From Escherichia phage P88, in sequence record NC_026014.1: a DNA stretch of 35,814 bases. One strand, 5' to 3'. This document shows positions 15,143-35,068 of the stretch, piece after piece. Both the position numbers and the translations under genes were made by a program. The notes beneath the pieces were generated by a model. The model saw only the letters and a list, made by a program, of their open reading frames with translations. It was not told the origin of the DNA and did no database searches. The number at the start of each line of letters is the position of its first letter. The first letter of the stretch is position 1.

Positions 15143-15164
15143 TAAGACAAAGGAGCAAATTTTT

Positions 15165-16217: not shown

Positions 16218-16262
16218 TCACCTCACGGCGGGCATCATGCCCGCCTGTAACGGAGAGAAAAA

Positions 16263-17063: not shown

Positions 17064-17155
17064 CGACTGACCCCGTCAGCGGGCGGCGTGCGCGGTGTTC
17101 CGGTTTGACTCCGTGACCGTTTACACCGCGCACCCACCGCCCGATTTTTTCAGGA

Positions 17156-19129: not shown

Positions 19130-19583
19130 TTCCCTGCGTGAAGCCATGACCCGTTCATGCCGATGGTGTCAGGCCAACCCGGAAAAATTCACCATTTTCG
19201 TGGAGAGCGGCAACATTGAAACGACAGGAGAAACCCCATCGTTTGTTTACCGCTATCAGATGGTGATGTTTGTCATGGATTACGCCGGGGAGCTGGATGA
19301 CCTCACGCTGCCGCTGCTGGCGTGGTTATCCGAAAATCAGCCACAGTTGTTGCTCAACCCTGAGCGTAATCAGGACATCAAATTCTCCGCCGTTATCAAT
19401 GACGATGACAGCGCCGATCTCCTGTTTACGCTCCCCCTGCGGGAACGCGTTCGCATCACGCGCAGCAGTCAGGGCACACCGCAGGCAGAACACCTGCCGG
19501 AGCCAAAACCCCGCCTGCCCTCTTCCGAAGGCGACTGGTCGCATGTATTCCAGGATGTGACGTGGGGTGAAAGCGATGGATAA
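19116..19583 (+). CDS. R: Tail completion protein R (P2 gpR-like)
   Basis: 155 aa, same length and position as P2 R. Confidence 0.82.
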   Translation: MLKTDSLREAMTRSCRWCQANPEKFTIFVESGNIETTGETPSFVYRYQMVMFVMDYAGELDDLTLPLLAWLSENQPQLLLNPERNQDIKFSAVINDDDSADLLFTLPLRERVRITRSSQGTPQAEHLPEPKPRLPSSEGDWSHVFQDVTWGESDG

Positions 19584-20211
19584 GGCATTCACACGCGTGG
19601 ATGAAACCTTTGAGGCCATCCGCGACAGCCTGAATCAGCAGGCCATCAATAACATCGCCAGAAAGCTGGCACAGGATTTACGCCGCGCCCAGCAGGCGCG
19701 TATCCGGTCACAGAAAGCGCCGGACGGGACCGCGTGGACACCACGCAGACGCCGCGTAACCCGGATACAGGAACGCATTCGCTTTATCTGGAATAACGAA
19801 GCACGCACGCTGAAAAACTGGCATCACGACACGGGGAAATACGGGCGAACCATTACCGGGTGGGATGAGGATAAAAACAATATCCGCACGTTTTACCGGG
19901 ATGACATCGACCGTTTTCTGGAAATACGCACCCGGCGCATCAACCAGGACAGCACAAAGCGCGTCCCCATGTTCGTAAAACTGCGCACCGCCCGCTACCT
20001 GAAAGCCCGTGCAGATGCTTCCGGTGTGACGGTGGGTTACAGCGGCGTGGCCGCACGTATTGCCCGCGTTCATCAGTTCGGTGAGCGCGATCAGGTTGCG
20101 CCGGGCATTTTCACCGATTACCCGGTACGTGAGCTGCTGGGTATCAGCCAGGCAGATGAGCGCCTGATTTATAACACGGTGCTGGGCCGGATTGCGGAGG
20201 CTGTACGGTGA
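19567..20211 (+). CDS. S: Tail completion / virion morphogenesis protein S (P2 gpS-like)
   Basis: 214 aa, longer than P2 S (150 aa); position between R and V; start could be the ATG at 19576. Confidence 0.8.
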   Translation: MKAMDKAFTRVDETFEAIRDSLNQQAINNIARKLAQDLRRAQQARIRSQKAPDGTAWTPRRRRVTRIQERIRFIWNNEARTLKNWHHDTGKYGRTITGWDEDKNNIRTFYRDDIDRFLEIRTRRINQDSTKRVPMFVKLRTARYLKARADASGVTVGYSGVAARIARVHQFGERDQVAPGIFTDYPVRELLGISQADERLIYNTVLGRIAEAVR

Positions 20212-20789
20212 GCGCAGAACTCATGCGACTGCTGAGCAATATCATCCGCACCGGGATCATCTCTGAAGTTGATGAGAAGTCCTGGCGCGTGCGCGTTCGC
20301 AGCGGCGAACTGGAAACAGGCTGGTTGCGCTGGAACACCACGCGCGCGGGAGCCTTCAATGTGTGGCTGCCGCCATCACCAGGCGAACAGGTGGTAATTG
20401 CCTGCATTGGCGGCAACCCGGAAACCGCCATGATAATTGGCAGCCTGTGGAGTGATGCCAGTCCGGCACCCGGCAAAAGCCTGAAAGAAATCGTGATCAG
20501 CGCGCCGGACGGCGCGGTGTTCCGCTACGACGCGGACGCTGGCGCACTGAGCGCCAGCGGCATGAAAACGGCCACTTTACAGGCATCCGTCAGCGTGACA
20601 CTGGATACGCCCGTCGTGGAATGCACAAACCTTCTGAGAACGGCGACGCTTGACGTCACAAAAGGAGGAAAGATGAGCGGCAATATCACGCACAGCGGCG
20701 GCGACTTCACCTCAAACGGCATTACCGTGCATACGCATAAACACGGTGGCGTGAAAGGCGGCAGCGATTCGACAGGAGGCCCGCAGTGA
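20208..20789 (+). CDS. V: Baseplate spike/assembly protein V (P2 gpV-like)
   Basis: 193 aa; Gly-rich C-terminus HTHKHGGVKGGSDSTGGPQ typical of gpV spikes; overlaps S stop. Confidence 0.88.
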   Translation: MSAELMRLLSNIIRTGIISEVDEKSWRVRVRSGELETGWLRWNTTRAGAFNVWLPPSPGEQVVIACIGGNPETAMIIGSLWSDASPAPGKSLKEIVISAPDGAVFRYDADAGALSASGMKTATLQASVSVTLDTPVVECTNLLRTATLDVTKGGKMSGNITHSGGDFTSNGITVHTHKHGGVKGGSDSTGGPQ

Positions 20790-21136
20790 CAACCCGCTAC
20801 ACAGGAATGAATCCGGACGGGACGGGAAACCTGAACGATATGGAGCACCTGAAACAGTCAGTCAGGGATATCCTGACCACCCCGCTGGCAAGCCGGGTTA
20901 TGCGACGGGAATATGGCAGCCTTGTGCCTGATTTGATTGACGAACCCATGAATAACACCACGCGTCTGCAATGCATGAGTGCTGCCGTGATTGCGCTGAC
21001 ACGATGGGAACCCCGCATTGCCCTGGATGCCATCGACGTTGTCTGGAAAGCGGGAGGCCGCGCCGGGGTGACGCTGTCGGGCACTGTCATGCAGACCATG
21101 CAGAATGTTGAATTAACCATCACGCTAAGGGAGTAA
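20786..21136 (+). CDS. W: Baseplate wedge protein W (GPW/gp25 family)
   Basis: 116 aa; DMEHLKQSVRDILTTPLASRVMRREYGS matches the gp25/GPW family pattern. Confidence 0.88.
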   Translation: MTTRYTGMNPDGTGNLNDMEHLKQSVRDILTTPLASRVMRREYGSLVPDLIDEPMNNTTRLQCMSAAVIALTRWEPRIALDAIDVVWKAGGRAGVTLSGTVMQTMQNVELTITLRE

Positions 21137-21139
21137 ATC

Positions 21140-22036
21140 ATGCCCGCCGTTGACCTTTCACAGTTACCGGACCCCGCCATCATCGCGGAGCCTGACTTTG
21201 AGGCAATTCTGGCTGACACAAAGGCCATGATGATTGCGGCTTATCCCGCCGAACAGCATGAAGCCGTTTCCGCCGCGCTGGAGCTGGAATCGGAACCCCT
21301 TAACGTTATCGCTCAAACCATGTCGTTTCGTGAAATGCTGTTACGCCAGCGGGTTAACGAGGGGGCACGCGCCTGCATGTTAAGCCACAGCGCCGGGACA
21401 GACCTGGACAACCTCGCGGGCAATATGAACACAAAGCGCCTGGTTATCACTCCGGCAACGGATACCACCGACGCGGTGATGGAGAGCGACACCTCGCTGA
21501 GACTGCGGGCGCAGCGGGCGTACGACGGCCTGAGTGTTGCTGGCCCGTCAGGTGCATACGAGTATTTTGCCCGCAGCGCCAGCGGTCTGGTGCGTGATGC
21601 GCGGGCTATCAGTCCGTCTCCGGCAAATGTGACGGTTTCCATTCTGTCCACTGAAGGCGACGGCACAGCAACGGAGGCGTTGCTTAATACCGTTCGCGCC
21701 GTTCTGAATGCAGAGGACACCCGCCCGGTGGCCGACCGCCTGACCGTACAGAGCGCCAGCATCGTGACATGGCGGCTGAATGCAAAACTGTACTTTTACC
21801 CCGGTCCGGAATCCGAACCTATTCTGGCTGCGGCGGAATCGTCGTTCAGGAAGTGGCTGGCTGAGCAGGGGCTTATCGGTCAGGACGTGGCGTTGTCCGC
21901 CATTGCTGCCGCACTGCATGTGCACGGTGTGCAACGCGTGGAGATAATCGAACCCACACAGAATATGGCCATCAGCGACATACAGGCGGCGCGCTGTGAG
22001 TCATTCACCATCAGCGAAGGTGGGCGCAATGAGTAA
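21140..22036 (+). CDS. J: Baseplate protein J (P2 gpJ-like)
   Basis: 298 aa in the conserved W-J-I order. Confidence 0.88.
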   Translation: MPAVDLSQLPDPAIIAEPDFEAILADTKAMMIAAYPAEQHEAVSAALELESEPLNVIAQTMSFREMLLRQRVNEGARACMLSHSAGTDLDNLAGNMNTKRLVITPATDTTDAVMESDTSLRLRAQRAYDGLSVAGPSGAYEYFARSASGLVRDARAISPSPANVTVSILSTEGDGTATEALLNTVRAVLNAEDTRPVADRLTVQSASIVTWRLNAKLYFYPGPESEPILAAAESSFRKWLAEQGLIGQDVALSAIAAALHVHGVQRVEIIEPTQNMAISDIQAARCESFTISEGGRNE

Positions 22037-22559
22037 TTCGTTGTTACCACCATCAGCCAGCAATTTCATGCGTTGTGCCGAAGCCGTCGGAACACGCATT
22101 ACAGACATTCCGGTAGACCTCAACACACTGTGGTCGCCGGATACCTGCCCGGTGCACCTGCTGCCTTATCTCGCCTGGGCGTTTTCCGTTGACCGCTGGG
22201 ATCGCAACTGGCCGGAAGAGACAAAGCGACAGGTTATTCGTGATGCATGGCTGATACACCGACACAAAGGGACCATCAGCGCACTGCGCCGGGCCATTGA
22301 GCCGCTGGGATACCTCATTCGCGTGTCTGAGTGGTGGGAGTTCGGCGGAGAACCGGGAACATTTACCGTTGAAGTCGGCACGCTGGACAGTGGCGTGACG
22401 GAGGAAATGTATCTGGAAATGGAGCGGTTGATTGCTGATGCCCGCCCGGTCAGCCGCCACATGACAGGGCTGAATATCATTCAGGAAATTCCGGGGGATA
22501 TTTTCGCAGCGGCGGCAACTTATGACGGTGAAGTTATTACCATTTATCCAGGCGATTAA
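22029..22559 (+). CDS. I: Baseplate protein I (P2 gpI-like)
   Basis: Start at the internal ATG overlapping the J 3' end; WSPDTCPVHLLPYLAWAFSVDRWD...HRHKGTISALRRAIEPLGY...MERLIADARPVSRH parallels P2 gpI. Confidence 0.85.
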   Translation: MSNSLLPPSASNFMRCAEAVGTRITDIPVDLNTLWSPDTCPVHLLPYLAWAFSVDRWDRNWPEETKRQVIRDAWLIHRHKGTISALRRAIEPLGYLIRVSEWWEFGGEPGTFTVEVGTLDSGVTEEMYLEMERLIADARPVSRHMTGLNIIQEIPGDIFAAAATYDGEVITIYPGD

Positions 22560-22561
22560 GC

Positions 22562-24856
22562 ATGAGTACCACAACACGAAAATTTAAAACCGTTATCACC
22601 GATACGGGTGCAAAAAAATTAGCTCAGGCAGCCGCGCCAGATGGTAAGCCTGTCCGCCTGACTCATATGGCAGTGGGCGACGGTGGCGGCACGTTGCCCA
22701 CACCAGACAGTAAGCAGACCCGTCTGGTGCATGAGGTGTGGCGACATACTGTTAATCGCGTCATCCTGGACGCAACACATCAGAACCGCATTATTGCGGA
22801 GCTGGTTATTCCTCCTGAAACGGGCGGATTCTGGATCCGGGAAATTGGTGTATTTGATGAGCACGGCGATTTAATCGCGGTGGGAAATACTGCCGAAAGT
22901 TACAAGCCAGCCGTTGCCGAAGGGTCCGGTCGTGCACAAACATTTCGCACCATTCTGACCGTATCCAGCACTGCCACCGTGGCGCTTACCGTGGATAACA
23001 CCATGGTGATGGCCACAGTGGATTACGTGGATGACAAACTGAAAGAGCATGAACAGTCACGACGTCACCCGGACGCCTCGCTGACCGCAAAAGGCTTTGT
23101 TCAACTCAGTAGCGCCACTAACAGCGTGTCTGAAACGCAGGCTGCAACGCCGAAAGCAGTAAAGGCCGCGTATGATCTTGCTAACGGTAAATATACTGCG
23201 CAGGATGCCAGCACGACGCGAAAAGGCCTTGTCCAGCTCAGTAGCGCCACCAACAGCACGTCTGAAACGCAGGCTGCAACGCCGAAAGCAGTAAAGGCCG
23301 CGTATGACCTTGCTAACGCAAAATATACCGCTCAGGACGCTACGACGGCACAAAAAGGGATAGTCCAGCTCAGTAGTGCCACCAACAGCACGTCTGAAAC
23401 ACTGGCCGCGACATCGAAAGCGGTTAAGGCGGTAATGGATGAAACGAACAAGAAAGCGCCCTTAAACAGTCCTGCGTTGACCGGAACGCCAACAACGCCA
23501 ACTGCGCGACAGGGAACGAATAATACCCAAATCGCAAGCACGGCTTTCGTTATGGCTGCGATTGCCGCCCTTGTAGATTCGTCACCTGACGCACTGAATA
23601 CGCTGAACGAGTTAGCGGCGGCGCTGGGAAACGACCCGAATTTTGCGACCACCATGACTAACGCGCTTGCGGGTAAGCAACCGAAAGATGCCACCCTGAC
23701 GGCGCTGGCCGGGCTTGCTACTGCGGCAGACAAGTTTCCGTATTTTACGGGGAATGATGTCGCCAGCCTGGCAACCCTGACAAAAGTCGGGCGGGATATT
23801 CTTGCGAAATCGACCGTTGCTGCCGTTATCGAATACCTCGGTTTACAGGAAACGGTAAACAGGGCTGGTAACGCCGTGCAAAAAAATGGCGATACCTTAT
23901 CCGGTGGGCTTACTTTTGAAAACGACTCAATCCTTGCCTGGATTCGAAATACTGACTGGGCAAAGATTGGTTTTAAAAATGATGCCGATAGCGATACTGA
24001 TTCATACATGTGGTTTGAAACAGGCGACAACGGCAATGAATATTTCAAATGGAGAAGCAAACAAAGCACCACAACAAAAGACCTGATGAATCTTAAATGG
24101 GATGCTTTGTCTGTTCTTGTTAAAGCCCTTTTCAGCAGTGAAGTAAAAATATCGACAGTCAATGCACTGAGGATATTTAATTCATCTTTTGGTGCCATTT
24201 TTCGCCGTTCTGAAGAATGCCTGCATATCATCCCTACACGAGAGAATGAGGGGGAAAATGGCGATATAGGGCCGCTACGCCCCTTTACGCTTAATCTCAG
24301 AACTGGTCGCATAAATATGGGGCATGGTCTGGATGTTACAGGAGATATAACAACTAACGCATGGGTGTACGCAAACCGCCTTGCAATTAACAGCAGCACA
24401 GGCATGTGGATTCATATGCGTGACCAGAATGTTATTTTTGGACGTAATGCGGTATCCACTGATGGTGCTCAGGCTTTGCTCCGTCAGGACCATGCCGACC
24501 GCAAATTTATGATTGGCGGTCTGGGAAATAAGCAATTTGGCATCTACATGATTAATAACTCAAGGACAGCCAATGGCACCGATGGTCAGGCGTACATGGA
24601 CAATAACGGTAACTGGCTTTGCGGTGCGCAAATTATTCCCGGAAATTATGGCAATTTTGACTCACGCTATGTGAGAGATGTCCGACTTGGCACACGTGTT
24701 GTTCAATTGATGGCGCGTGGAGGGCGTTATGAAATAGCCGGACACGCACTTACCGGATTAAGGATTATTGGTGAAGTTGATGGCGATGATGAAGCTATCT
24801 TCAGGCCGATACAAAAATACATCAATGGCATATGGTATAACGTCGCACAGGTGTAA
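22562..24856 (+). CDS. H: Tail fibre protein H; C-terminal third lies in an invertible segment
   Basis: 764 aa; three tandem 44-aa fibre repeats; crossover site at residues 422-430 (VIEYLGLQE); C-terminal ...FRPIQKYINGIWYNVAQV. Confidence 0.93.
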   Translation: MSTTTRKFKTVITDTGAKKLAQAAAPDGKPVRLTHMAVGDGGGTLPTPDSKQTRLVHEVWRHTVNRVILDATHQNRIIAELVIPPETGGFWIREIGVFDEHGDLIAVGNTAESYKPAVAEGSGRAQTFRTILTVSSTATVALTVDNTMVMATVDYVDDKLKEHEQSRRHPDASLTAKGFVQLSSATNSVSETQAATPKAVKAAYDLANGKYTAQDASTTRKGLVQLSSATNSTSETQAATPKAVKAAYDLANAKYTAQDATTAQKGIVQLSSATNSTSETLAATSKAVKAVMDETNKKAPLNSPALTGTPTTPTARQGTNNTQIASTAFVMAAIAALVDSSPDALNTLNELAAALGNDPNFATTMTNALAGKQPKDATLTALAGLATAADKFPYFTGNDVASLATLTKVGRDILAKSTVAAVIEYLGLQETVNRAGNAVQKNGDTLSGGLTFENDSILAWIRNTDWAKIGFKNDADSDTDSYMWFETGDNGNEYFKWRSKQSTTTKDLMNLKWDALSVLVKALFSSEVKISTVNALRIFNSSFGAIFRRSEECLHIIPTRENEGENGDIGPLRPFTLNLRTGRINMGHGLDVTGDITTNAWVYANRLAINSSTGMWIHMRDQNVIFGRNAVSTDGAQALLRQDHADRKFMIGGLGNKQFGIYMINNSRTANGTDGQAYMDNNGNWLCGAQIIPGNYGNFDSRYVRDVRLGTRVVQLMARGGRYEIAGHALTGLRIIGEVDGDDEAIFRPIQKYINGIWYNVAQV
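23090..23440 (+). repeat. Tandem in-frame repeat, about 2.7 copies of 132 bp (44 aa) inside H
   Basis: Repeat unit KG(F/L/I)VQLSSATNS(V/T)SETQAATPKAVKAAYDLAN..YTAQDA occurs at residues 177, 221 and 265. Confidence 0.75.
23826..23851. repeat. Left crossover site of the invertible segment (gix/hix/cix-like, 26 bp)
   Basis: TTATCGAATACCTCGGTTTACAGGAA; near-exact inverted repeat of the site at 26897..26922 (23 of 26 after reverse-complementing). Confidence 0.75.
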
Positions 24857-24859
24857 ATT

Positions 24860-25387
24860 ATGCAGCATTTAAAAAATATTAAGTCTGGAAATCCAAAAAC
24901 AAAAGAACAATATCAGCTAACAAAGAATTTTGATGTTATCTGGTTATGGTCCGAAGACGGAAAAAACTGGTATGAGGAAGTGAAAAACTTTCAGCCAGAC
25001 ACAATAAAGATTGTTTACGATGCAAATAATATTATTGTCGCCATCACCAAAGATGCCTCCACGCTTAACCCTGAAGGTTATAGCGTCGTTGAGGTTCCTG
25101 ATATTACAGCTAATCGTCGTGCTGATGATTCCGGTAAGTGGATGTTTAAGGACGGAGCTGTGGTTAAACGGATTTATACGGCAGACGAGCAACAACAACA
25201 GGCCGAATCACAAAAGGCCGCGTTACTTTCCGAAGCAGAAAACGTTATTCAGCCACTGGAACGCGCTGTCAGGCTGAATATGGCGACGGATGAGGAACGC
25301 GCACGACTGGAGTCATGGGAACGCTATAGTGTTCTGGTCAGCCGTGTGGATACGGCAAATCCTGAATGGCCACAAAAGCCTGAATAA
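24860..25387 (+). CDS. G: Tail fibre assembly chaperone (P2 gpG-like)
   Basis: 175 aa immediately after H; N-terminal [24 protein letters not shown]... of the Tfa family. Confidence 0.9.
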
Positions 25388-25415
25388 AAATTAAGGCCCG
25401 ATAGCGGGCCTTGTT

Positions 25416-25949
25416 TCATTCTGGTTGTTCTGGAAACGTTACTGGCAGGCTGGAGGTGTCTGTGGATTCGACCTTCTGCGCATAGAGCATCCACTCGGTT
25501 AATTTTTGTTTATTCTCGTCGGGAATGATACCCAGCCGTAGCTGTGAGTCCCATAGCTGGGTTTTATCCCTGACAAGTTGCAACAGGCTTTGCTTTTCAT
25601 TCTCTGCCTGCTGCCTCTGTTCCTCCTCGGTATAAGTTCGCTTTATCACTACGCCATCTTTGAACATCCATTTACCCGAAATATCAGCCCGGCGATTTGC
25701 TGTAATATCAGGTAATTCAACGACGCTTGCGCCTTCCGGATTAATTGCTGAAACATCCTTTTCAATACAAATAATAACGCCGTTATGGTCATAGACCATT
25801 TTCAAAGTGTCTGGCTGGAAATTCTTTTGTTCCTCATACCAGTTTTTTCCATCATCTGAATAAAGCCATTTGATGTTAAATTGCTTTGTTAGCTGGTATT
25901 GCTCTTTTGTTTTAGGGTTGCCAGCAGTAATGTTTTTTAAGTGCATCAT
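25416..25949 (-). CDS. Alternative tail fibre assembly chaperone (G')
   Basis: 177 aa; N-terminal half almost identical to G, divergent C-terminal half; convergent with G. Confidence 0.9.
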   Translation of the reverse strand: MMHLKNITAGNPKTKEQYQLTKQFNIKWLYSDDGKNWYEEQKNFQPDTLKMVYDHNGVIICIEKDVSAINPEGASVVELPDITANRRADISGKWMFKDGVVIKRTYTEEEQRQQAENEKQSLLQLVRDKTQLWDSQLRLGIIPDENKQKLTEWMLYAQKVESTDTSSLPVTFPEQPE

Positions 25950-25951
25950 CG

Positions 25952-26914
25952 TTAAATACTCCCCGCGTTATACCACGTCCCATTAATGCAATACTGAATT
26001 GGCCTTGCCTGAGTTGTATCAATTAATTCATCACGGTTTCCGTTAACTGAACCCGTAACGACATAACCTGACCTGTCAGACCAGCCGGGGCCATTCCATG
26101 TCTGAACAGATGACAGACCGCCAAGGCGAATACCTGTAATAAACCTTGAGTTACATTCTGCCTGCGTGTATGCACCAACATCTCCCGCAGAGGGTTTGCG
26201 GGTCGTGGTGTAAAACTCTGACCAGTCAGCCTCAAATCCATAACCATCACGCGCTGAACGATAAAAAATACCGCCGTTCCTGTAATTCACGCGGAACTGT
26301 ACAGCAGGGCAGCTCCCCGTATTCATATTGAAGTGGAGGATTAATGTCGATGCGCCACCAATGTTTGCGTTATAGACCCCGCTATTCCAGTTCCAGCCAA
26401 CAGCTTTATCATTTCCGACAGTGCTTCCTGTTTGCCCTAAAGCAAATGCAGGTTGTTGATTTTTCGTGTTGTAGTCTCGTCGCCAGCCAGGAGCATAAGC
26501 ATCACCATGATTAATATAAGTGAATTGAGCGTTAGTAATTCCGCCACCGCTGGACGTGCTCGGCGTGGTAACGCGTATGGTCATTGCGCCGCGAGTGCCA
26601 ATAACTTCCACCACAGCACCTGCAAGACAAATATTTCCGCAACCTGTATCTGTAATGACCTTATTATTTGCATAAGCCCATGAGCCTTTGCACATCCAGT
26701 AAGGATGGTTAAATGCTCCCTGACTCTCCAGCCACGAAATAAATTGCGCGGTTGTCCAGACCTGACTATCGCCACCAATATTCAGCCATGCGCTATATGC
26801 GCGGCAGGCCCCAATATTTTTGGTGAAGGTATCTTTTCCCGGAATATCTGCGCCGTTCTGGTTTTTCTGTAATGCGCCAGAAGCCTGATTTACCGTTTCC
26901 TGTAAACCGAGGTT
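25952..26914 (-). other. Alternative tail-fibre C-terminal segment (Hv'), start-less, fused to H after inversion
   Basis: Minus-strand frame is open from the right crossover site; my translation reads NLGLQETVNQASGALQKNQNG... across the site, matching H at YLGLQETVNRAGNAVQKNG; ends ...RPIQYCINGTWYNAGSI like H. Confidence 0.75.
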
Positions 26915-26922
26915 TTAGATAA
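26897..26922. repeat. Right crossover site of the invertible segment (gix/hix/cix-like, 26 bp)
   Basis: TTCCTGTAAACCGAGGTTTTAGATAA, about 55 bp upstream of the invertase start; close to the Gin/Hin site consensus as I recall it. Confidence 0.75.
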
Positions 26923-26976
26923 TGGCCGTTTCTGACCTGCATGGCATGATTTACGCTTTTGGACGGGAGATTCAGC

Positions 26977-27564
26977 GTGCTGATTGGCTATGTAAGGGTA
27001 TCAACAAATGACCAGAATACAGACCTGCAACGAAACGCTCTTGTTTGTGCAGGATGTGAACAAATATTTGAAGATAAATTAAGCGGGACAAAGACAGACC
27101 GACCGGGATTAAAACGCGCTTTAAAGCGCCTTCAAAAAGGTGACACGCTGGTTGTCTGGAAACTGGATCGCCTCGGGCGAAGCATGAAACATCTGATTTC
27201 TCTCGTCGGGGAACTACGGGAGCGAGGGATTAATTTTCGCAGTCTGACCGACAGCATAGATACATCTTCTCCAATGGGGCGTTTTTTCTTCCACGTGATG
27301 GGTGCCCTGGCTGAAATGGAACGTGAATTAATTGTTGAACGTACACTGGCCGGACTGGCAGCAGCGCGCGCACGGGGGCGCACAGGCGGACGTCGCCCGA
27401 AGCTGACAAAAGAACAGCATGAGCAAATAGCAAGGCTGATTAAAAACGGTCACGACAGAAAACAACTGGCAATAATTTACGGCATTGGTACATCGACGAT
27501 TTATCGTTACCACCCCGCAGGAGAATCAAGCGGAACAATAGAGAAGAGTCAGAAAACAAAATAA
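26977..27564 (+). CDS. Serine DNA invertase (Gin/Cin/Pin/Hin family)
   Basis: From the GTG start the product begins MLIGYVRVSTNDQNTDLQRNAL... (catalytic Ser in VRVSTNDQ), near-identical to the Gin/Pin N-terminus as I recall; C-terminal HTH. The track ORF starts at a TTG at 26959. Confidence 0.9.
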   Translation: MLIGYVRVSTNDQNTDLQRNALVCAGCEQIFEDKLSGTKTDRPGLKRALKRLQKGDTLVVWKLDRLGRSMKHLISLVGELRERGINFRSLTDSIDTSSPMGRFFFHVMGALAEMERELIVERTLAGLAAARARGRTGGRRPKLTKEQHEQIARLIKNGHDRKQLAIIYGIGTSTIYRYHPAGESSGTIEKSQKTK

Positions 27565-27591
27565 CCGCTAATCTGACCATTAGCGGTTTTT
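27565..27591. terminator. Bidirectional intrinsic terminator between invertase and the tail operon
   Basis: Stem CCGCTAAT / ATTAGCGG, T-run on the plus side and A-rich tract upstream (U-run for the minus-strand transcript). Confidence 0.65.
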
Positions 27592-27599
27592 GTGTTAAA

Positions 27600-28094
27600 T
27601 CAGAACAGCCCTTTAACTGAACTGGCCGCGCTGTTAAGGGATGATGTCACCTTATCTTTGAAGCCGGACAGCATATCGCTGAACGATGAGGATTGCAGGC
27701 GCTCCCGCAAATCCTCATCACAGCGTTCAAGGGTCAGTGAAAATTCTATCTTTTTCGCCTTACCGTAGCGATCAAACTCGGAACGGGTCGTATTCGTTCC
27801 GGTCAGGACATACATGCCGTAAATCTGCCCGACGCCATCAATCAAAGGCCAGGGTCGTCCTGTATACGCCTGCGTGGTCAGCAGCGACAGCGACACTTCG
27901 CCACCTGTAATTTCAGGATAAAGCACACCAGAAAGAACGATGCGATCATCACCTGCACCGATATACTGCCAGCTTGCTGAACGGTTAACGCGTTCATTTT
28001 TCACATGCCGCCAGCTTTTGTTTTGCTGTAACTGCTGATGCGGCAGCGTGCGCAGCTCAAAAACAAACATGCCGTAGATCATCATCATGGCCAT
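27600..28094 (-). CDS. U: Tail protein U (P2 gpU-like)
   Basis: 164 aa; FVFELRTLPHQQLQQ...YPEITGGEVSL...PLIDGVGQIYGMYV...KIEFSLTL pattern of P2 U. Confidence 0.88.
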   Translation of the reverse strand: MAMMMIYGMFVFELRTLPHQQLQQNKSWRHVKNERVNRSASWQYIGAGDDRIVLSGVLYPEITGGEVSLSLLTTQAYTGRPWPLIDGVGQIYGMYVLTGTNTTRSEFDRYGKAKKIEFSLTLERCDEDLRERLQSSSFSDMLSGFKDKVTSSLNSAASSVKGLF

Positions 28095-28100
28095 GACTCC

Positions 28101-30944
28101 TCAATCTTTATCGTAAAAACTGCCACGCCCGGCACGGGCGCGCCGTTCCATTTCTGCCCTGACCATTTCACCGACCAGTTTCGCCAGTTCGCGGGGATTC
28201 TGTGTAACAACGTTATGCAGATGAACATGAATTTCACCGCCAAATCCGGAGGCAACAGGCTCCCGGTTACGGGAAGTTGCAGGAACTGATGCCACTGGCG
28301 ATCGTATGGCCTCTGCCACCGGGCGAGAGCTGGCCGCAACAACAGGGACCAGCGCCGGAGGCAGCGGAGCCGGAACCACAGGTGTGATATTAATTGCGGG
28401 GGCAGGCTTACTGACCTGCGCAATCTTCCGCTCCTGCCACTCCCCACGAACGGCAAGTGCGCGGGGCAGGTTCTTAAAGACAATATCGCCAGGGCCAATA
28501 CGTTTTTTCGTCTCATCAACCAGCTTACCTGTGTTATCAGCAATTTTGCTGAGTCTGCGTAGCGTACCGGTATTGCTGTCTGTGAGCGGTTTGTTGTCTT
28601 TGGGTTTATCACCTCCGGTGCCATTGCCATTTTCCACAGGCTTCGGCGGATTGATTTTCGCCAGGTCCCCCTGAAGCAAGGCAACCTTGTCCTGAAGAAT
28701 GGCCGCACGCTGTGCGTCTTCGATTTTCTTGCGCGCCCTTTCCGCTTCATCCGGAAGCACACCGAGCTTTTCAAGTATCCACGCCAGCGTATCCAGCAAC
28801 ATTTTTGCAGGTGTCAGAACAAGTTGTAACGCACCGCCAAGAACGTTACCGAATATCTCGCCAGCACTGGTACATTTATCCAGCGTTTCCTTGCTGGACT
28901 CCATCGGTGACAGCAGCGATTTAAACCAGTTAAACACCTGGCTGATCCCACTCCCGATTGCGTCAAAAACAGGACCAAACCGTTCAAAGGTTTCGCGCAA
29001 CGGGGTCAGCCTTTCCATAATCCCGCTGAACACCCCGGCAAAAAATGCCCTGATGGGATCCCAGTATTTCCAGATAAGAACGGCAGCTCCGGCAAGCGCA
29101 GCCACGATAAGACCAACCGGACTGAACAACGCCCCGATAGCGCCTCCCAGTAAAGAAACGGAACCCGTCACCATTCCCCACAGCGCAGGCAACACCCTGA
29201 CGACATTCATTGACCGGGTAAGAATGTCAAAACCAAGACGCAGGGTGGCCAGCTTCCCGTAAAGCACCCCAATAACCAGCGACAACGAGCCAATCGTTGC
29301 AGTCATTGCCAGCAGTGCACCGCCTGCAATCAGTAGCTGGCGCGTCAGTGCGGGATGGGCCTGCGCCAGCGCCGTCACCTTTGATACCACACGCGTGAGC
29401 CACTGCGTGACAGAACGCAGCGGACCGTCAATCAGATCTGCAATGCGGATGCGCAACCCTTCCCATGCACTGCTGAGTGATTTCAGATCGCCGTCAAGGT
29501 TGTTGGCCATAACCTTTGCCGTGCGTTCAGCCTCACCGCGCGCGCCTTCAAGTTCTTTTCTCAGTTTGGGTAAGGAGCCGTCACCTGCCGCATCAACGAG
29601 GGCCATAAATGATGTGAAAGCCTCTTCTCCGGCAATGTCCTTAAAGAACGATACCCGGTCAACTTCCCCGTATTTGCGGGTAGCTTTATAAAGGTCAGCC
29701 AGCACATCCTCCATCGGGCGCATTTTGCCCCCGGCATCCGAGACAGACACGCCAAGCTCTTTCAGCGCCTCTGCTGCCGCCTTTGGCGGTGATGCCAGAC
29801 GAGCCAGGCTGGCACGCATTGCCGTCCCGGCATCACTCCCTCTGATACCCATATTCGCCAGCACGCCCGCCATCGCTGCGGCCTGCTCCAGCGATATTCC
29901 CAGCTTACCCGCCACCGGACCTGCATATTTCATGGTTTCGCCCAGCGCGCGAAGGTCAGTGTTAGTACGGGTAAACGCTGCTGTAAGCGTGTCACCGACC
30001 CGGTCCATCTGGTCAGCGGAGAGGCCGAACTGCGTCAGGATATTTGAGCCAATATCCGCCGTCTCGCCAAGGTCCATACCGCCAGCCGTTGCCATGCTCA
30101 GCACGCCCGGAAGCGCAGCCTGAATGGCCTGCGGTGTGAAGCCAGCCATTGCAAGAAATGCCTGCCCACTGGCGGCATCGCCTGCGGTGAACTGCGTTTC
30201 AGAGCCAAGTTTTAACGCCTGCTCACGCAGCGCCTTAAACTGCGGGCTGTTTTTGTCGATTCGCGTCAGTGCCTGAACGCGGGACATCTCTTTCCCGAAC
30301 CCGATCGCAGGCTGCAAAAAACGCCCGGCAGCATAGCCGCCCGCCGCTGCCGCACCAATTGCCAGCGCACCACCTGTTTTCAGTTTTCCCGCTGTTTCCT
30401 GCGCGCGCGAATACCGCTCACGCGCCCGCGTTACACGCGCAAGCGCCTGCCGTTCGCGTTCAAGCTGGTTGTTGTATTGTTCGGTGCGTCTGATGGCCTG
30501 CTGGATGGTGTTATCGCTGCCTGTCAGGGAAATGCCGTGGCGTTTCAGCTCTCCGCCAAGCTCCCGCATTTTCTGAATTTCCCGTGTGCGCGATTCATTC
30601 AGGCGTTCAAGCCGGGTGCTTAACTGCTGCATCAGCTTTTGTTGTTTTTCGCTGAGCACTGTACCCGTGCGTTGTAACTGATTAAGGGCGTTAAGCTGGC
30701 GTCGTGCTTTCACGATACCCGCATCCGCTTTACTGACAGCGTCGCGGGCGCGCTCAAATGAACGCGCCTGACGCTCGAGATTTTTGATCGCCCCCTGCGT
30801 TCGCTGGATGGAGTCACCAAACTGCCCCATCAGGCGGCGTGCGTTTTCGGCAGGTCGGGTCAGCCTGTCAACGGCGCTGAAAGCGACCCGGATATCAAGA
30901 GTCTTCATTGTCTGCATTCCCGCTGCGAAGTGCCGCCCGCTCAC
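28101..30944 (-). CDS. T: Tail tape measure protein (P2 gpT-like)
   Basis: 947 aa; N-terminal coiled-coil, central Gly/Ala-rich hydrophobic segments, downstream of E/E'. Confidence 0.93.
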   Translation of the reverse strand: MSGRHFAAGMQTMKTLDIRVAFSAVDRLTRPAENARRLMGQFGDSIQRTQGAIKNLERQARSFERARDAVSKADAGIVKARRQLNALNQLQRTGTVLSEKQQKLMQQLSTRLERLNESRTREIQKMRELGGELKRHGISLTGSDNTIQQAIRRTEQYNNQLERERQALARVTRARERYSRAQETAGKLKTGGALAIGAAAAGGYAAGRFLQPAIGFGKEMSRVQALTRIDKNSPQFKALREQALKLGSETQFTAGDAASGQAFLAMAGFTPQAIQAALPGVLSMATAGGMDLGETADIGSNILTQFGLSADQMDRVGDTLTAAFTRTNTDLRALGETMKYAGPVAGKLGISLEQAAAMAGVLANMGIRGSDAGTAMRASLARLASPPKAAAEALKELGVSVSDAGGKMRPMEDVLADLYKATRKYGEVDRVSFFKDIAGEEAFTSFMALVDAAGDGSLPKLRKELEGARGEAERTAKVMANNLDGDLKSLSSAWEGLRIRIADLIDGPLRSVTQWLTRVVSKVTALAQAHPALTRQLLIAGGALLAMTATIGSLSLVIGVLYGKLATLRLGFDILTRSMNVVRVLPALWGMVTGSVSLLGGAIGALFSPVGLIVAALAGAAVLIWKYWDPIRAFFAGVFSGIMERLTPLRETFERFGPVFDAIGSGISQVFNWFKSLLSPMESSKETLDKCTSAGEIFGNVLGGALQLVLTPAKMLLDTLAWILEKLGVLPDEAERARKKIEDAQRAAILQDKVALLQGDLAKINPPKPVENGNGTGGDKPKDNKPLTDSNTGTLRRLSKIADNTGKLVDETKKRIGPGDIVFKNLPRALAVRGEWQERKIAQVSKPAPAINITPVVPAPLPPALVPVVAASSRPVAEAIRSPVASVPATSRNREPVASGFGGEIHVHLHNVVTQNPRELAKLVGEMVRAEMERRARAGRGSFYDKD

Positions 30945-31424
30945 GCCAGCTAACCACTTCGCCGGGCGTCATCATGAAGATTTCGGCGGGCGACCAGTTA
31001 AAAATAACGGCAATATCTGCCACAAAGTCTTCTATGTGCTCAAAGCACACAACCGTGATCAGGCTTCCGTCGCCTGTTCGTTCTTCCCGCCAGAGTCCGC
31101 ACCGCTCAAAAAATTTACGGCAACCACACATAACTGAATAAAGTCACGGGATGCCATTTTTTTGATCGTCACTTCATCCAGTCGCGGTGATGTCACGCGT
31201 GACAGCAGCGTAAACATGGATTCCGCTTTCAGACTCAGCACATCAGACAGCGACAAATCTCGCAGAGATCCAGCCTGCTCAATAGCCCCGGTGATCTCCA
31301 CATACGTGATTTTTTCGCCGCTTCGCTCAATTGGTTGGGTAAGTTTTACGCCACGCTCACTGGTTTCTTTCACAGTGTCAGTAACTACCGTGTTTTCGGT
31401 ATCGATGTTTTTCGTCTCTTTCAT
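30895..31424 (-). CDS. E+E' frameshift product (programmed -1 frameshift)
   Basis: The E' ORF (30895..31131) is in the -1 frame relative to E and overlaps the T start; shift expected at ATC-AAA-AAA-ATG as in P2 E/E' and lambda G/GT. Confidence 0.6.
31059..31424 (-). CDS. E: Tail assembly chaperone E (P2 gpE-like)
   Basis: 121 aa between tube gene and tape measure; slippery A7 run in the mRNA (plus-strand T7 at about 31157..31163) near its 3' end. Confidence 0.85.
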   Translation of the reverse strand: MKETKNIDTENTVVTDTVKETSERGVKLTQPIERSGEKITYVEITGAIEQAGSLRDLSLSDVLSLKAESMFTLLSRVTSPRLDEVTIKKMASRDFIQLCVVAVNFLSGADSGGKNEQATEA

Positions 31425-31478
31425 CAGGAAACTCCTTTCAGTCAGAGGCGACGCACTGCGCCGCCTGCATATTACTTA

Positions 31479-31991
31479 TCAGCCAAGCCCAAGCGCGGAA
31501 CGGATGCGATCGGGCACAATGTCCTTGCCGTCCTTCCGGTAAATGAAGTTCAGCAAGTCAATCTCCCACAACGGGCGATCGTTAACACTCAGCTTGTAGT
31601 AGGTGTTTTTAATGGCATAAGTGTGTGATGTGGCTTCGCCCTGTTTGGCTTCCCCCATATCAATTTCCGTCACACGTCCGCGCATTTCGACTTCATACAG
31701 GTCGCTTTCTGCATCGGTGTAGTATTCACCCGCAAAACGCAGCAGTGTGCCGTCAATCGTGCCGCCATACTTAAGGAACAGCTCACGAACTGCGCCCCCC
31801 ATGACAAAGCTCGCATCAAGCGCGGAGTCGTCCAGGCCGAGATCAATACTTACCGCCCCCATCATGCCACCACCCCGGTAGCTGTCGGTTTTGCGCGTCA
31901 GCTTAGGCAGAGTGACGGACGTCACCTTACCCACTTCGTTTTCACCATCCACAAACAGCGTAAAAAAGCGAAGATGTTTTGGCACAGCCAT
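31479..31991 (-). CDS. FII: Tail tube protein (P2 gpFII-like)
   Basis: 170 aa directly after the sheath gene (TGATG overlap). Confidence 0.92.
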   Translation of the reverse strand: MAVPKHLRFFTLFVDGENEVGKVTSVTLPKLTRKTDSYRGGGMMGAVSIDLGLDDSALDASFVMGGAVRELFLKYGGTIDGTLLRFAGEYYTDAESDLYEVEMRGRVTEIDMGEAKQGEATSHTYAIKNTYYKLSVNDRPLWEIDLLNFIYRKDGKDIVPDRIRSALGLG

Positions 31992-33175
31992 CAGGCACCT
32001 CCCAGCACCGCAAATGCGGGTTCAAAGTATTCATCAGTAAACGTCTGGTAAAGCTCCATGTCTTCCAGTGGCGGAACGGGCGTATATTTGTAGCGAATAC
32101 GCACACGTCCCTGACGTAAATCCGTGGTGCTGTTATCCACCACGTCATACCAGCACTCCGCGCCAATCAGTTTCCCGGCAGTAACCAGTGAATCCAGTTT
32201 TGCCCTGATGGCACTGATAACATCCTTCACGTTCGCAGGCGTCAGTGGACTGTCGATGGTTTCAAACTGCGCTTCCGCAATTGAATCAGCCAGCACCTGT
32301 GCGGTTCGGGTATACACCTCAAAGATGTAGGCGTTCGTTTCCGGTGTGCGGTTGCCCCAGAAGCGGAACCCGTTGCGACGAATAATGGTCGTGATTTCTT
32401 TGTTGTTGAGGCTGTTGGCATCGCTGTCTTCGGCCTGCAACGACCAGAACACATGCCTCGACATCCCCAGCACATTTTTAACCGGAACGTTGGACAGTGA
32501 TTTGTGCCATCCCTGCTCATGGTCAATGTACGCACGAAGGCCGCACGCATAGGCAGACGCGGGGAACGTTTCGTTTTTGCCACTTTTCGGGTTGTAGGCG
32601 ATGAAGTCCGGCCATAAGAGCATCACCTCACGTTCGTTGAATTTCTGGCGGTAGGTAATCGCCTCAGCCATCGTGTTACAGCCGTGACATGAGGCATACA
32701 CAAACGCGCGCAGTTTACCTGCAATCACGCACAGGGATTTTGTTACAGCCTCCGTGTCCAGCTCCGGCGCGGCCAGAATACGCGGACGGTATCCGATGCT
32801 TTCATCCTGCTCTGCAACAAGCAGCGCATACATCCCCGTATAGCTGCCGTCATCCTCAGAACCACCGATAACCAGTTGATCCTGCGTCTTTCCGTCTTCT
32901 TCTTTGTGTTCAGCCACGCGAACGACGATCACCTTTGTGCTCACCTGGTCTGCGATGGCCTTAAGCGCACGATAAAGCGTCCCCGTTGTCCCGCATTTTC
33001 CCAGCACGTCATTGACGCGGGTCAGCAGTGTGGGCTTGTTCAGCGGGAACAGCTTCGCGTCCGCATCATCCGCCGTTGCCACGATACCGATAACGCTGGA
33101 ATCAACATCGTTAATCGCTGTTACCAGGTCGGTATTTTCCGTAACACGGGCACCATGAAAACGAGTTTCACTCAT
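31991..33175 (-). CDS. FI: Contractile tail sheath protein (P2 gpFI-like)
   Basis: 394 aa, P2 FI-like size; first gene of the sheath-tube-chaperone-tape measure operon. Confidence 0.93.
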   Translation of the reverse strand: MSETRFHGARVTENTDLVTAINDVDSSVIGIVATADDADAKLFPLNKPTLLTRVNDVLGKCGTTGTLYRALKAIADQVSTKVIVVRVAEHKEEDGKTQDQLVIGGSEDDGSYTGMYALLVAEQDESIGYRPRILAAPELDTEAVTKSLCVIAGKLRAFVYASCHGCNTMAEAITYRQKFNEREVMLLWPDFIAYNPKSGKNETFPASAYACGLRAYIDHEQGWHKSLSNVPVKNVLGMSRHVFWSLQAEDSDANSLNNKEITTIIRRNGFRFWGNRTPETNAYIFEVYTRTAQVLADSIAEAQFETIDSPLTPANVKDVISAIRAKLDSLVTAGKLIGAECWYDVVDNSTTDLRQGRVRIRYKYTPVPPLEDMELYQTFTDEYFEPAFAVLGGA

Positions 33176-33332
33176 AGCTTCAGCCCCTTGTATCCGTTAA
33201 ATGATTCGGCAACAATCATCACCCACCACGCGCGTAATCTCACCCCTGCGCCGTTCTCCCGCCACGGCGACAACAAAAAGCAGTAACCCCCTCCGCACGC
33301 ACATGCGACCATGCCGCACAGGGAGGGAACAG
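33176..33332. promoter_or_regulatory. Divergent intergenic region between FI and D (expected late promoters)
   Basis: 157-bp gap between divergently transcribed FI and D; D has a GGGAGGGA SD. No promoter consensus verified. Confidence 0.3.
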
Positions 33333-34433
33333 ATGACCGATACCACCATGCAATTGCTCAGTCAGGGCACAGACCCCGTGAAAATGCCGGATTTTGATAT
33401 TCTCGCGGAGGGTAAAACGCTGTCAGGCGTGGCAGAGCGCCTGATGAGCCTGTCACTGACCGACAACCGGGGATTTGAAGCGGACCAGCTCACCATCACG
33501 CTGGATGATGCGGATGGTCAGTTGCAGCTACCGCCACGGGGCGCGCGCCTGACGGTTCTCATTGGCTGGAAAGGAGAACCGCTGACAGAAAAAGGCACTT
33601 ACATTGTTGATGAAATCGCTCACGAAGGACCGCCGGACAGGCTGACTGTTTCAGCCAGAAGCGCAGATTTTCGGGATGAATTTAACGTTAAACGTGAGGT
33701 GTCCTGGCATGATGTGACCGTTGAGCGTGTGGTATCCGCCATCGCTCATCGGTATGGTCTGAAACCGCAAATCAGCGAAATGCTGATGGATATCGAAATC
33801 GACCACGCCGACCAGACCGAAGAAAGCGACATGTCCTTCCTTACGCGCATGGCGGAAATGCTGGGCGCAATCACCACGGTAAAAAGCGGTAATCTGTTAT
33901 TCATCATGCCCGGTGGTGGCGTGAACGCACAGGGCCAGCCGTTGCCATCGTTCGCCATCACACGCAGCAGCGGCGATCGCCATCAGTTCCGCATTGCTGA
34001 CCGCGAGGCGTATACGGGTGTACGCGCCTACTGGCTTGATCTTAATTACGGGAAAAAGAAAAAAGTCAGCGTGAAACGCCGCAAACCGAAAAAAGAGAAA
34101 AGCAGCAGCCGTGAAGGTGACTATATGGAAGGTGCGGAAGGCAACGTGTTTGTGTTACGCAAGACTTATCAGAACGAGCAGGCAGCAAGACGCGCAGCGG
34201 CGGCAAAGTGGCAGCAGCTACAACGCGGAGCCGCATCATTCTCCATCACACTGGCACGTGGACGCGCAGAACTCTACCCCGAAATGCATGGCACGGTAAC
34301 AGGATTTAAAAGCGAGATTGATAATCAGGACTGGATTATTGCAAAAGCCGAGCACACCATTGATAACAGTGGCTTTACCACACAGCTTGAGCTTGAGGCA
34401 AAAATCCCGGAATGGATAGCGGAAACAGAGTGA
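33333..34433 (+). CDS. D: Tail protein D (P2 gpD-like)
   Basis: 366 aa from the internal ATG with strong SD (track ORF starts at 33201); sits before ogr as in P2. Confidence 0.88.
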   Translation: MTDTTMQLLSQGTDPVKMPDFDILAEGKTLSGVAERLMSLSLTDNRGFEADQLTITLDDADGQLQLPPRGARLTVLIGWKGEPLTEKGTYIVDEIAHEGPPDRLTVSARSADFRDEFNVKREVSWHDVTVERVVSAIAHRYGLKPQISEMLMDIEIDHADQTEESDMSFLTRMAEMLGAITTVKSGNLLFIMPGGGVNAQGQPLPSFAITRSSGDRHQFRIADREAYTGVRAYWLDLNYGKKKKVSVKRRKPKKEKSSSREGDYMEGAEGNVFVLRKTYQNEQAARRAAAAKWQQLQRGAASFSITLARGRAELYPEMHGTVTGFKSEIDNQDWIIAKAEHTIDNSGFTTQLELEAKIPEWIAETE

Positions 34434-34475
34434 GGAACTTAGAATAGCGACAGCACCACGTTAAGGGAGGTCGCT

Positions 34476-34736
34476 ATGTTCCGTTGTCCGCTTTGTGGCG
34501 CATCTGCCCGTATCCGCACCAGTCGTCCGGAAAATGATTCAAACACCGTGCGGCAAAAGTATTACCAGTGTAACAACCTGGAATGCGGCGTATGCTTCTC
34601 AACACTGGAAGCTTTCCATAAATTTACATCGAAACACGCCTCCGGCGTTCACTCATCAGAAGGTATCCCATGGCATGATCTGCCAGCTTCACACAGGGGA
34701 AACAATCAGATGAGTTTGCCTTTACCTCAGAATTAA
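34476..34736 (+). CDS. ogr: Late transcription activator Ogr/Delta family (zinc finger)
   Basis: N-terminus MFRCPLCGASARIRTSR...YYQCNNLECGVCF matches P2 Ogr (MFHCPLCQHAAHARTSR...YHQCQNVNC...) with the C-x2-C ... C-x4-C pattern. Confidence 0.88.
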   Translation: MFRCPLCGASARIRTSRPENDSNTVRQKYYQCNNLECGVCFSTLEAFHKFTSKHASGVHSSEGIPWHDLPASHRGNNQMSLPLPQN

Positions 34737-34927
34737 CAGGCAGAATTGCCGGAGTAACAAAAAAGCGATAGATTACGCGCGGGTGCCTTTCGGCTGATGG
34801 TCGGAGGGAATACCCGAAGGCCAGATGTGGAAAGGCCCCGGAAAACATTTCTGTTTAACCGAGGCCCTAACATATCTACCTTAAGCAAGTGATAGGTTAG
34901 CGCCTCTCCAACAAAGGAGCAAGCGCT

Positions 34928-35068
34928 ATGTCGCAAAAATCGCTTACGGCCATCACGTTCTGCGTGACGGTAATCCTCATCATCTGGATGCTGCACGGTT
35001 CGCTGTGTGAAATACGGATGAGCTTTTGGGGAGCGGAGTTTGCGGCGTTCTTACAGTGTAAGCAGTAA
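34928..35068 (+). CDS. Hok/Gef-family type I toxin (46 aa)
   Basis: My translation: MSQKSLTAITFCVTVILIIWMLHGSLCEIRMSFWGAEFAAFLQCKQ; one TM helix then the LCE(I/V)R...E(V/F)AAF motif of Hok/Gef; AAGGAG SD 8 nt upstream; below the ORF-track cutoff. Confidence 0.7.
   Translation: MSQKSLTAITFCVTVILIIWMLHGSLCEIRMSFWGAEFAAFLQCKQ

Follow-up and report, generated by a model that had tools for sequence, protein, structure and literature searches.

Reversed orientation of the FI–U tail gene block appears to be an ancient, fixed trait of a clade of P2-like prophages

The window analyzed here (the whole 35,814-nt sequence of Escherichia phage P88, NC_026014.1) displays a minus-strand block of the tail genes U, T, E/E′, FII and FI at positions 27600–33175, with the DNA invertase gene, D and ogr on the plus strand. 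This reversed arrangement is the normal order of a common P2-like prophage group that is already sequenced and classified by the ICTV. Judged from sequence comparisons, the flip of the tail block appears to be an ancient, fixed and ordinary trait of a whole P2-like clade. The FI to U genes, together with their late promoter pF, very probably inverted once in the common ancestor and have stayed so since, and the activator box in front of FI would now serve two divergent promoters.

Gene order and comparison with P2 and Fels-2

Gene strands and identities are taken from the open reading frame listing and from PHROG profile scans. The features are:

26959–27564, plus strand: DNA invertase, Gin family (PHROG_125 DNA invertase, E = 6.6e-97)
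27563–27588, both strands: bidirectional intrinsic terminator where invertase and U converge (10-bp stem hairpin, T-runs on both strands)
27600–28094, minus strand: gpU-like tail protein (PHROG_76 tail protein, E = 8e-75)
28101–30917 (or 30908), minus strand: gpT tape measure protein (PHROG_28, E = 7e-217)
31059–31424, minus strand: gpE (PHROG_103)
30895–31424, minus strand: gpE+E′, −1 frameshift product (slippery T_TTT_TTG at 31107–31113)
31479–31991, minus strand: FII tail tube protein (PHROG_55, E = 8e-60)
31991–33175, minus strand: FI tail sheath protein (PHROG_23 tail sheath, E = 2e-128)
33176–33332, no strand: FI–D divergent intergenic region (putative bidirectional late promoter)
33333–34433, plus strand: gpD, late control D/VgrG-Pvc8-like tail protein (PHROG_52, E = 4e-167)
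34476–34736, plus strand: Ogr-type zinc-finger late activator (PHROG_603, E = 4e-15)

The window has a complete P2-like late tail module, i.e. sheath FI, tube FII, E/E′, T, U, D and the Ogr-type activator, with PHROG E-values of 4e-15 to 7e-217. A tblastn search of this module against P2 (NC_001895) and Fels-2 (NC_010463) gives 25%–54% identity; the proteins are about 42%–54% identical to those of the two phages. The first-pass annotation had placed FI, FII, E/E′, T and U on the minus strand and D and ogr on the plus strand, and both the open reading frame listing and the PHROG scans bear this out. The elements it described at the two ends of the block are also present: the hairpin at 27563–27588 forms a bidirectional terminator between U and the invertase gene and marks the block's left boundary, and D and FI have a divergent region of 157 bp in common.

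P2 and Fels-2 carry the same gene set, FI, FII, E/E′ (with a T_TTT_TTG frameshift), T, U, D and ogr. As in the window, an activator box is present ~83 nt upstream of the FI ATG and a −10 sequence is ~36 nt from the box. The genes of both phages are co-directional, however, with U overlapping D and the pF operon ending with D, whereas the window does not show the canonical FI-FII-E-T-U-D-ogr order: pF-FI...U is reversed and D is separate. The P2 record displays FI-FII-E-E′-T-U-D as one operon transcribed from pF, in agreement with the earlier description. Fels-2 has H-G-G′-H′-invertase-FI...U-D-ogr on one strand, the invertase being between the fibre genes and FI. Because the P2 operon and the Fels-2 order are co-directional, one inversion of ~27.57–33.3 kb restores the canonical order, as had been proposed.

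The Peduoviridae are not defined by gene order, and the reversed order is found in four ICTV genera of this family. Fels-2/SopE-phi was considered as an example of a reversed block and dropped, as the Fels-2 record shows the canonical order. Rfam and tRNA scans of the inverted block gave no matches. GC skew tracks gene orientation and is thus uninformative on the age of the inversion.

Distribution of the reversed order

The Xuanwuvirus phages, P88/P88_4B11 (NC_049391), Shae_phiSM of Citrobacter (OR565851), PhiR44_2, 520873 and 500465-2, are collinear with the window and show ~95% nucleotide identity over window positions 24800–35000. Order and strands are those of the window (H, G, G′, H′, invertase, reversed U-T-E-FII-FI, D, ogr), and the 157-bp FI–D gap is also present. 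The differences are allelic only, and some records carry other tail-fibre or IS100 cargo. Membership in Xuanwuvirus is read from 95% coverage and 95.2% identity, collinear, values that refer to a 10.2-kb query and not to the whole genome. The window is a typical member of the Xuanwuvirus type of E. coli prophages.

The FI–D junction was probed with a 1-kb sequence, and 1356 of 5426 complete E. coli genomes, about a quarter, match at least 80% of the probe's length. The invertase–U junction is present in 622 complete E. coli genomes. The reversed order is also found in Senquatrovirus, Novemvirus and Reginaelenavirus phages (SEN5, phiT5282H and Klebsiella 3LV2017) and in a Xenorhabdus prophage. 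D and FI are divergent in all of the 80 closest IMG/VR loci wherever both genes are present, and none of the 80 is canonical. About 30 IMG/VR contigs (32 loci) that have an FI 56%–61% identical to that of the window show the reversed order; loci with an FI identity of ~52% or less are all canonical. Neighbor-joining trees of FI and of D both place 32 inverted loci in a single clade apart from 75 canonical loci, with 30 of 30 bootstraps for each gene.

An old lineage-specific rearrangement was one of the options given in the first-pass annotation, and the clade-wide order and the FI and D trees strongly support it. Comparison with related genomes shows the closest relatives to have this order as a rule, with no specific repeats at the junctions, which is what would be expected of an ordinary lineage trait.

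The FI–D intergenic region

The elements of the FI–D region, and those of the P–O divergent region used for comparison, are:

33255–33272, no strand: activator box TCT-N12-ACA (extended GTTCT-N12-ACAAC, 33253–33274)
33220–33215, minus strand: −10-like GATGAT for pF, 35/36-nt offset from the box
33307–33312, plus strand: −10-like GACCAT of a putative D promoter, on the mirrored side of the box
14216–14233, no strand: activator box of the P–O divergent region (comparison element), same motif as the FI–D box
14181–14176, minus strand: P–O hexamer TAATCT (NANNNT, offset 35/36)
14269–14274, plus strand: P–O hexamer CATCAT (NANNNT, offset 35/36)

The Ogr box consensus is of the TGT-N12-ACA type (PMC3931495). 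A perfect TGT-N12-ACA is not found in the late intergenic regions of the window; boxes are seen only when one mismatch is allowed, and a comparison of clade members supports them. The FI–D box has one mismatch to TGT-N12-ACA, its left half-site being TCT as opposed to the TGT of the P2 pP/pO type, and most clade members are perfect at the same place. The exact motif TTCT-N12-ACAACAAAA is found in the window at the FI–D and P–O divergent regions only. In the P–O region both the 13-base motif and the geometry are those of the FI–D region. Half-sites differ by subclade (TGT/ACA, TCT/ACA and TCT/AGA), a variation that may reflect co-evolution with the zinc finger of Ogr.

The distance from the FI ATG to the box center is 80–88 nt across the clade, compared with 83 nt in P2 pF, whose mapped −10 is at offset 36. 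A NANNNT hexamer is seen at an offset of 35/36 nt on the FI side of the box in 28/28 inverted regions and in 37/38 canonical ones. All 28 inverted regions also have one on the far (D) side, compared with only 6 of the 38 canonical regions; the inverted regions are related sequences, so that this count reflects conservation and not 28 independent events. In a separate count, hexamers at 35/36 on both sides of the box are found in 33/33 regions of the inverted clade.

P2 has a comparable arrangement at pP/pO: its record gives a single activator site for both promoters, a dyad box midway between two divergent late genes and ~55 nt from each mapped transcription start. P2 uses the shared-box design at P/O only, and its pF is unidirectional. 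The FI–D geometry of the window is that of P2 pP/pO, and this suggests that the FI–D region may be a bidirectional late promoter of the same style which also drives D-ogr. We infer the D-side promoter solely from the conserved geometry; two points count against it, the short leader of the predicted D transcript (only ~12–14 nt) and the TCT mismatch in the box of the window. On balance it seems probable that the inversion placed the pF site next to a promoter-less D and that a mirror −10 sequence was then fixed, giving a bidirectional promoter for D-ogr.

Proposed origin of the arrangement

The FI-FII-E/E′-T-U operon and its own Ogr-dependent promoter pF would have inverted together in a single event. 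The ancestor would be that of a multi-genus P2-like clade that includes Xuanwuvirus, Senquatrovirus, Novemvirus, Reginaelenavirus and related Enterobacterales prophages. The left breakpoint would be directly past the U stop codon, at a site that now serves as a terminator-bounded slot for the exchange of tail-fibre and invertase cassettes. The right breakpoint would lie in the stretch from the pF activator box to the start codon of D. The dyad box at 33255–33272 would now serve pF leftward into FI...U and also a derived promoter rightward into D and ogr. D, which used to close the F operon, would stay late-expressed via the shared box.

Alternatively, a foreign pF-FI...U module may have been acquired by recombination and inserted in reverse, with no inversion in situ. 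P2-like phages are mosaic, and reshuffled late operons are found in others of them, e.g. Smp131 (PMC3931495). In addition, a recombination hot spot lies right after U, where relatives whose FI is 98%–100% identical show at least eight alternative sequences. However, the same clade is recovered with FI and with D, and the two genes have diverged to a similar extent (the subclades are 56%–61% identical to the window in FI and 60%–66% in D), which fits co-inheritance of block and flank, and a single inversion is more parsimonious. Acquisition of a reversed module is considered unlikely. It should be noted that a module swap in reverse orientation leads to the same end state as an inversion in situ.

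The adjoining invertase and the junctions

Enzymes of the Gin family invert DNA that lies between two gix sites in inverted orientation. Like the Gin/Cin/Hin/Pin segments (Mu G, P1 C), the window has such a segment, a fibre segment at 23826–26922 with a gin-like gene at 26959–27564. The only gix sites in the window (three or fewer mismatches) are at 23826–23851 and 26897–26922, and these flank the fibre segment. Window positions 24800–27332 are 98.6% identical to the S′/U′/U/gin sequence of phage D108, which is nearer to this cassette than the Xuanwuvirus records are. Because of this identity, a recent import of the Gin cassette is suggested.

The invertase gene lies directly against the left junction of the tail block, and the first-pass annotation had considered that the enzyme flipped the block at secondary (pseudo-gix) sites, an event that could be recent or reversible. 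A search for gix-like sites at either junction yields best matches with 11–12 mismatches in 26 positions, no better than background, and an inverted repeat pairing the two junctions was not found. The FI–U block is unlike Mu G and P1 C: it has no recombination sites at its ends, it is not found in both orientations among close relatives, and no cognate invertase is consistently linked to it. An invertase beside U is absent in SEN5, phiT5282H, 3LV2017, two further loci (L085, a Salmonella locus with the inverted block, and L086) and most IMG/VR clade members. Moreover the cassette appears to be a recent import, whereas the inversion predates ~40% protein divergence. An invertase-mediated flip of the block is thus highly improbable.

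An assembly artefact, i.e. a mis-oriented contig join, was also proposed and has nothing in its favor beyond the odd order relative to P2; its probability is negligible, as the FI–D junction is present in more than 1300 complete E. coli genomes and the invertase–U junction in the 622 noted above, the same junctions are found in independently sequenced isolates of four genera and in 80 IMG/VR contigs, and P88 and phiSM are viable, plaque-forming phages (PMC5285337, PMC6456863). Invertase action and assembly error are both rejected because most members have no invertase, the junctions have no gix-like sites or inverted repeats, and the cassette appears to be recent. The adjoining invertase belongs to the context of the block and did not bring about its inversion.

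One inverted repeat (26 nt, 77%; 27289–27314 and 33358–33383) has one arm in the coding sequence of the invertase and the other in that of D, off the junctions, and was treated as a chance match.

Significance for annotation

A description of the rearrangement was not found in the literature on P88, SEN4/5, phiSM, Serratia PP4 or inversion in the Peduoviridae. The arrangement has little discovery value, and its practical use is in annotation and in synteny-based prophage calling. A reversed FI–U block beside D is a clade marker and should not be flagged as a misassembly or as a product of the invertase. The putative shared box would give a simple account of the late control of D and ogr once these were cut from the F operon. 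If true, this would be a natural, datable case in which a promoter became bidirectional and rescued a split operon.

Details of individual genes

The assigned start of D is corrected from 33201 to the ATG at 33333. This ATG is preceded by the Shine-Dalgarno sequence AGGGAGGGA, and it matches the 157-bp FI–D gap annotated in relatives, where a 1-bp indel just upstream breaks the frame of the longer D open reading frame. With D starting at 33333, the block boundary is therefore truly 33332, the end coordinate given in the first-pass annotation.

U is 46% identical to U of P2 and Fels-2, and FI is 46%–48% identical to its counterparts. T starts with the ATG at 30917 or 30908; its length is annotated as 2808 nt in relatives. 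E′ is a −1 extension of E that reaches 30895, a frameshift recognized at the level of sequence and of the same kind as that annotated for E+E′ in the P2 record. E′ is annotated as a separate CDS in P88_4B11. PHROG_55 is labeled “head closure” in PHROGs, yet the family corresponds to P2 FII.

The cysteine spacing of Ogr in the window, read from the translation, is CX2C-X24-CX4C; the P2 Ogr motif is CX2CX22CX4C (PMC3931495). The U stop codon is immediately followed by a hairpin in relatives as well, and these hairpins differ among them.

Gene order of the tail block

The sequence is a P2-like (Peduoviridae) prophage, with the following principal features:

108–1139, int
5957–8779, replication gene A
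11354–14151, minus strand, Q and P
about 14306–25387, plus strand, O through G
invertible fibre segment, alternative G' and H' on the minus strand
26959–27564, plus strand, Gin-type invertase
27563–27588, bidirectional hairpin terminator between the converging invertase and U genes
27600–28094, minus strand, U
28101–30917, minus strand, T
31059–31424, minus strand, E
31479–31991, minus strand, FII
31991–33175, minus strand, FI
33333–34433, plus strand, D
34476–34736, plus strand, ogr

In P2, FI-FII-E-E'-T-U-D is annotated as a single operon from pF, and in Fels-2 the order H-G-G'-H'-invertase-FI...U-D-ogr lies on one strand. In the window, however, U through FI are on the minus strand and D stands apart, on the plus strand with ogr. 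These gene orders confirm the genes and strands described in the first-pass annotation, and also its proposal that a single inversion of about 27.57–33.3 kb would restore the canonical order. The bidirectional terminator it placed where U meets the invertase is present as a hairpin.

E' is a −1 frameshift extension of E that reaches 30895, with a slippery sequence T_TTT_TTG at 31107–31113. The D start is the ATG at 33333 and not the upstream ATG of the long open reading frame, because AGGGAGGGA stands just before it, the FI–D gap is annotated as 157 bp in relatives, and some relatives have a 1-bp indel just upstream of the D ATG that would break the longer frame. At the beginning of the O (scaffold) open reading frame (14273–14306), the second ATG, at 14306 (MANEKK...), is the probable start; it presumably aligns with the N-terminus of P2 gpO, and it leaves space for the predicted pO transcription start.

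The prophage early region has Rfam gathering-level matches to isrK (5028–5102, 63.6 bits) and C4 antisense RNA (5138–5225, 80.5 bits). A 46 aa open reading frame at 34928–35068 (plus strand; MSQKSLTAITFCVTVILIIWMLHGSLCEIRM...) is similar to Hok/Mok-type membrane toxins; a "MokW-like host killing" gene is annotated after ogr in P88_4B11, and Chuche has one inside the matched region.

Distribution and age of the reversed order

A megablast search of phage records with window positions 24800–35000 gave matches to the genus Xuanwuvirus, P88_4B11, Shae_phiSM, PhiR44_2, 520873, 500465-2 and Chuche. The Xuanwuvirus matches have ~95% identity and are collinear, with strands as in the window. With the FI protein as query, a scan of IMG/VR yielded 436 relatives; in the best 80 of these (FI 98–100% identical) D and FI are divergent wherever both are present, and the canonical order is found in none. 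Reversed order is also seen in Salmonella SEN4/SEN5 (Senquatrovirus), Enterobacter phiT5282H (Novemvirus) and Klebsiella 3LV2017 (Reginaelenavirus). Among the closest relatives this order is the norm, and no repeats mark the junctions; on the first-pass annotation's own terms this makes it an ordinary lineage trait. The window is a typical representative of a recognised and classified phage group, and the order can be read from RefSeq annotations.

In a GTDB scan (one genome per species, FI alignment as query), 3 of 80 loci are reversed: Salmonella enterica, a "Vagococcus" assembly and Xenorhabdus santafensis, whose FI is 60% identical to that of the window. Canonical order is kept in about 75 loci, whose FI is 46–52% identical; these come from Enterobacterales, Burkholderia, Pseudomonas, Acinetobacter and other hosts. 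A second query, the FI of Xenorhabdus, yielded 52 IMG/VR loci; all 32 with FI 56–61% identical to the window are reversed, and all with FI at most 50% identical and D retained are canonical. After de-duplication at 92% identity, 32 reversed and 75 canonical loci were placed in neighbour-joining trees, one for FI and one for D; in each, 30/30 bootstraps recover the reversed loci as a single clade. The simplest reading of these sequences is that the event happened once, long ago, and became fixed in a clade of several genera; the inversion is older than ~40% protein divergence. Of the origins suggested in the first-pass annotation, the old lineage-specific rearrangement is thus the right one, given the clade-wide order and the monophyly.

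Late-operon reshuffling was noted earlier in other P2-like phages, such as Smp131 (PMC3931495). The accessible literature on P88, SEN4/5, phiSM and Serratia PP4 does not comment on the present rearrangement.

Several records deserve mention. In Citrobacter phage Shae_phiSM (OR565851.1), GenBank product names seem to be out of register by one gene, with "late control gene D protein" assigned to the sheath gene and "ogr/Delta-like zinc finger family protein" to gpD. Its tail is described as long and non-contractile (PMC6456863), yet a sheath is encoded. NC_049344 (520873) and NC_049341 (503458) carry IS100 (IS21-family) within the matched 10-kb fibre cassette–ogr interval, with two tape-measure and two sheath entries beside it, which may point to a split gene. 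The "Vagococcus sp. WN89Y" (Firmicutes) locus, NZ_JBQPOM010000071.1, is a 226-kb contig with an enterobacterial prophage whose FI shares 97% identity with that of the window; contamination or a mixed culture is the probable source.

Alternative origins of the reversal

Inversion of the block by the neighbouring Gin-type invertase is rejected. Only two gix sites are present in the window (23826–23851 and 26897–26922), both flanking the fibre segment and not the block. Near the block junctions the best gix-like matches have 11–12/26 mismatches, the background level, and a search of the window found no inverted repeat pairing the junctions. The reversed block has fibre genes adjoining U and no invertase in SEN5, phiT5282H, 3LV2017 and the Salmonella locus. 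The same is true of roughly one in three near-identical IMG/VR loci and of every distant one except two. The fibre/gin cassette (24800–27332) matches Mu-like phage D108 at 98.6% identity and seems to be a recent import, whereas the inversion is older than ~40% protein divergence. An assembly error is excluded, since the junctions recur in the phage records and IMG/VR loci and in complete E. coli genomes (FI–D 1-kb probe, at least 80% of length matched, 1356/5426; invertase–U probe, 622), and P88 and phiSM are viable temperate phages (PMC5285337, PMC6456863).

The fibre segment and most of the invertase gene (23826–27332; 24800–27332 tested) also match the cassettes of Mu, P7 and P1 at 93–96% identity. 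High identity ends at about 27332, within the invertase gene, so that gene appears to be a mosaic. Past the U stop codon (27565–27599), the sequences of relatives with FI 98–100% identical fall into at least eight unrelated types, most of which contain hairpin-forming sequence. This slot thus looks like a sharp border at which tail-fibre/invertase cassettes are exchanged, and not like a recombination site of the block.

The FI–D intergenic region

The activator site TGT-N12-ACA is common to P2 late promoters (PMC3931495). The exact 13-base motif TTCT-N12-ACAACAAAA has only two copies in the window, both with TCT-N12-ACA, which departs from the P2 core at one position:

14215–14239, P–O divergent region
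33254–33278, FI–D divergent region

Across the clade a T[GC]T-N12-A[CG]A box, mostly a perfect TGT-N12-ACA, is centred 80–88 nt from the FI ATG, comparable to 83 nt in P2 pF. This conserved distance argues that pF moved along with the block, and it places the right breakpoint on the D side of the box, ahead of D.

On the FI side, 28/28 reversed and 37/38 canonical regions have a −10-like NANNNT at an offset of 35/36 nt from the box (in P2 pF the mapped −10, GAAAAT, is at offset 36). On the D side it is found at the same offset in 28/28 reversed compared with 6/38 canonical regions; a separate count gave 33/33 reversed regions, and all these counts, from related sequences, represent conservation and not independent events. 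The window hexamers are:

33220–33215, minus strand, GATGAT, FI side
33307–33312, plus strand, GACCAT, D side

The predicted leftward start is near 33207 and the rightward one near 33320, each upstream of its start codon. P2 pP/pO has one annotated activator-binding site with mapped starts ~55 nt to either side, and the P–O region of the window has the geometry of the FI–D region if O starts at 14306. From this precedent, the shared motif, and the conserved box and hexamers, we infer that the FI–D region is a bidirectional Ogr-dependent promoter. D, cut off from the F operon, would have needed a new late expression route; the box would serve pF leftward and a derived D-ogr promoter rightward, both Ogr-dependent. 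Of all these observations, only the conserved mirror −10 element is somewhat new; it suggests that the promoter became bidirectional.

The half-sites vary. One subclade (L174–L184 and L208 among the compared loci) has a perfect dyad GTTCTC-N10-GAGAAC, i.e. TCT-N12-AGA, and others have TGT-N12-ACA; both boxes of the window are the hybrid, TCT-N12-ACA. This variation may reflect co-evolution with the Ogr zinc finger.
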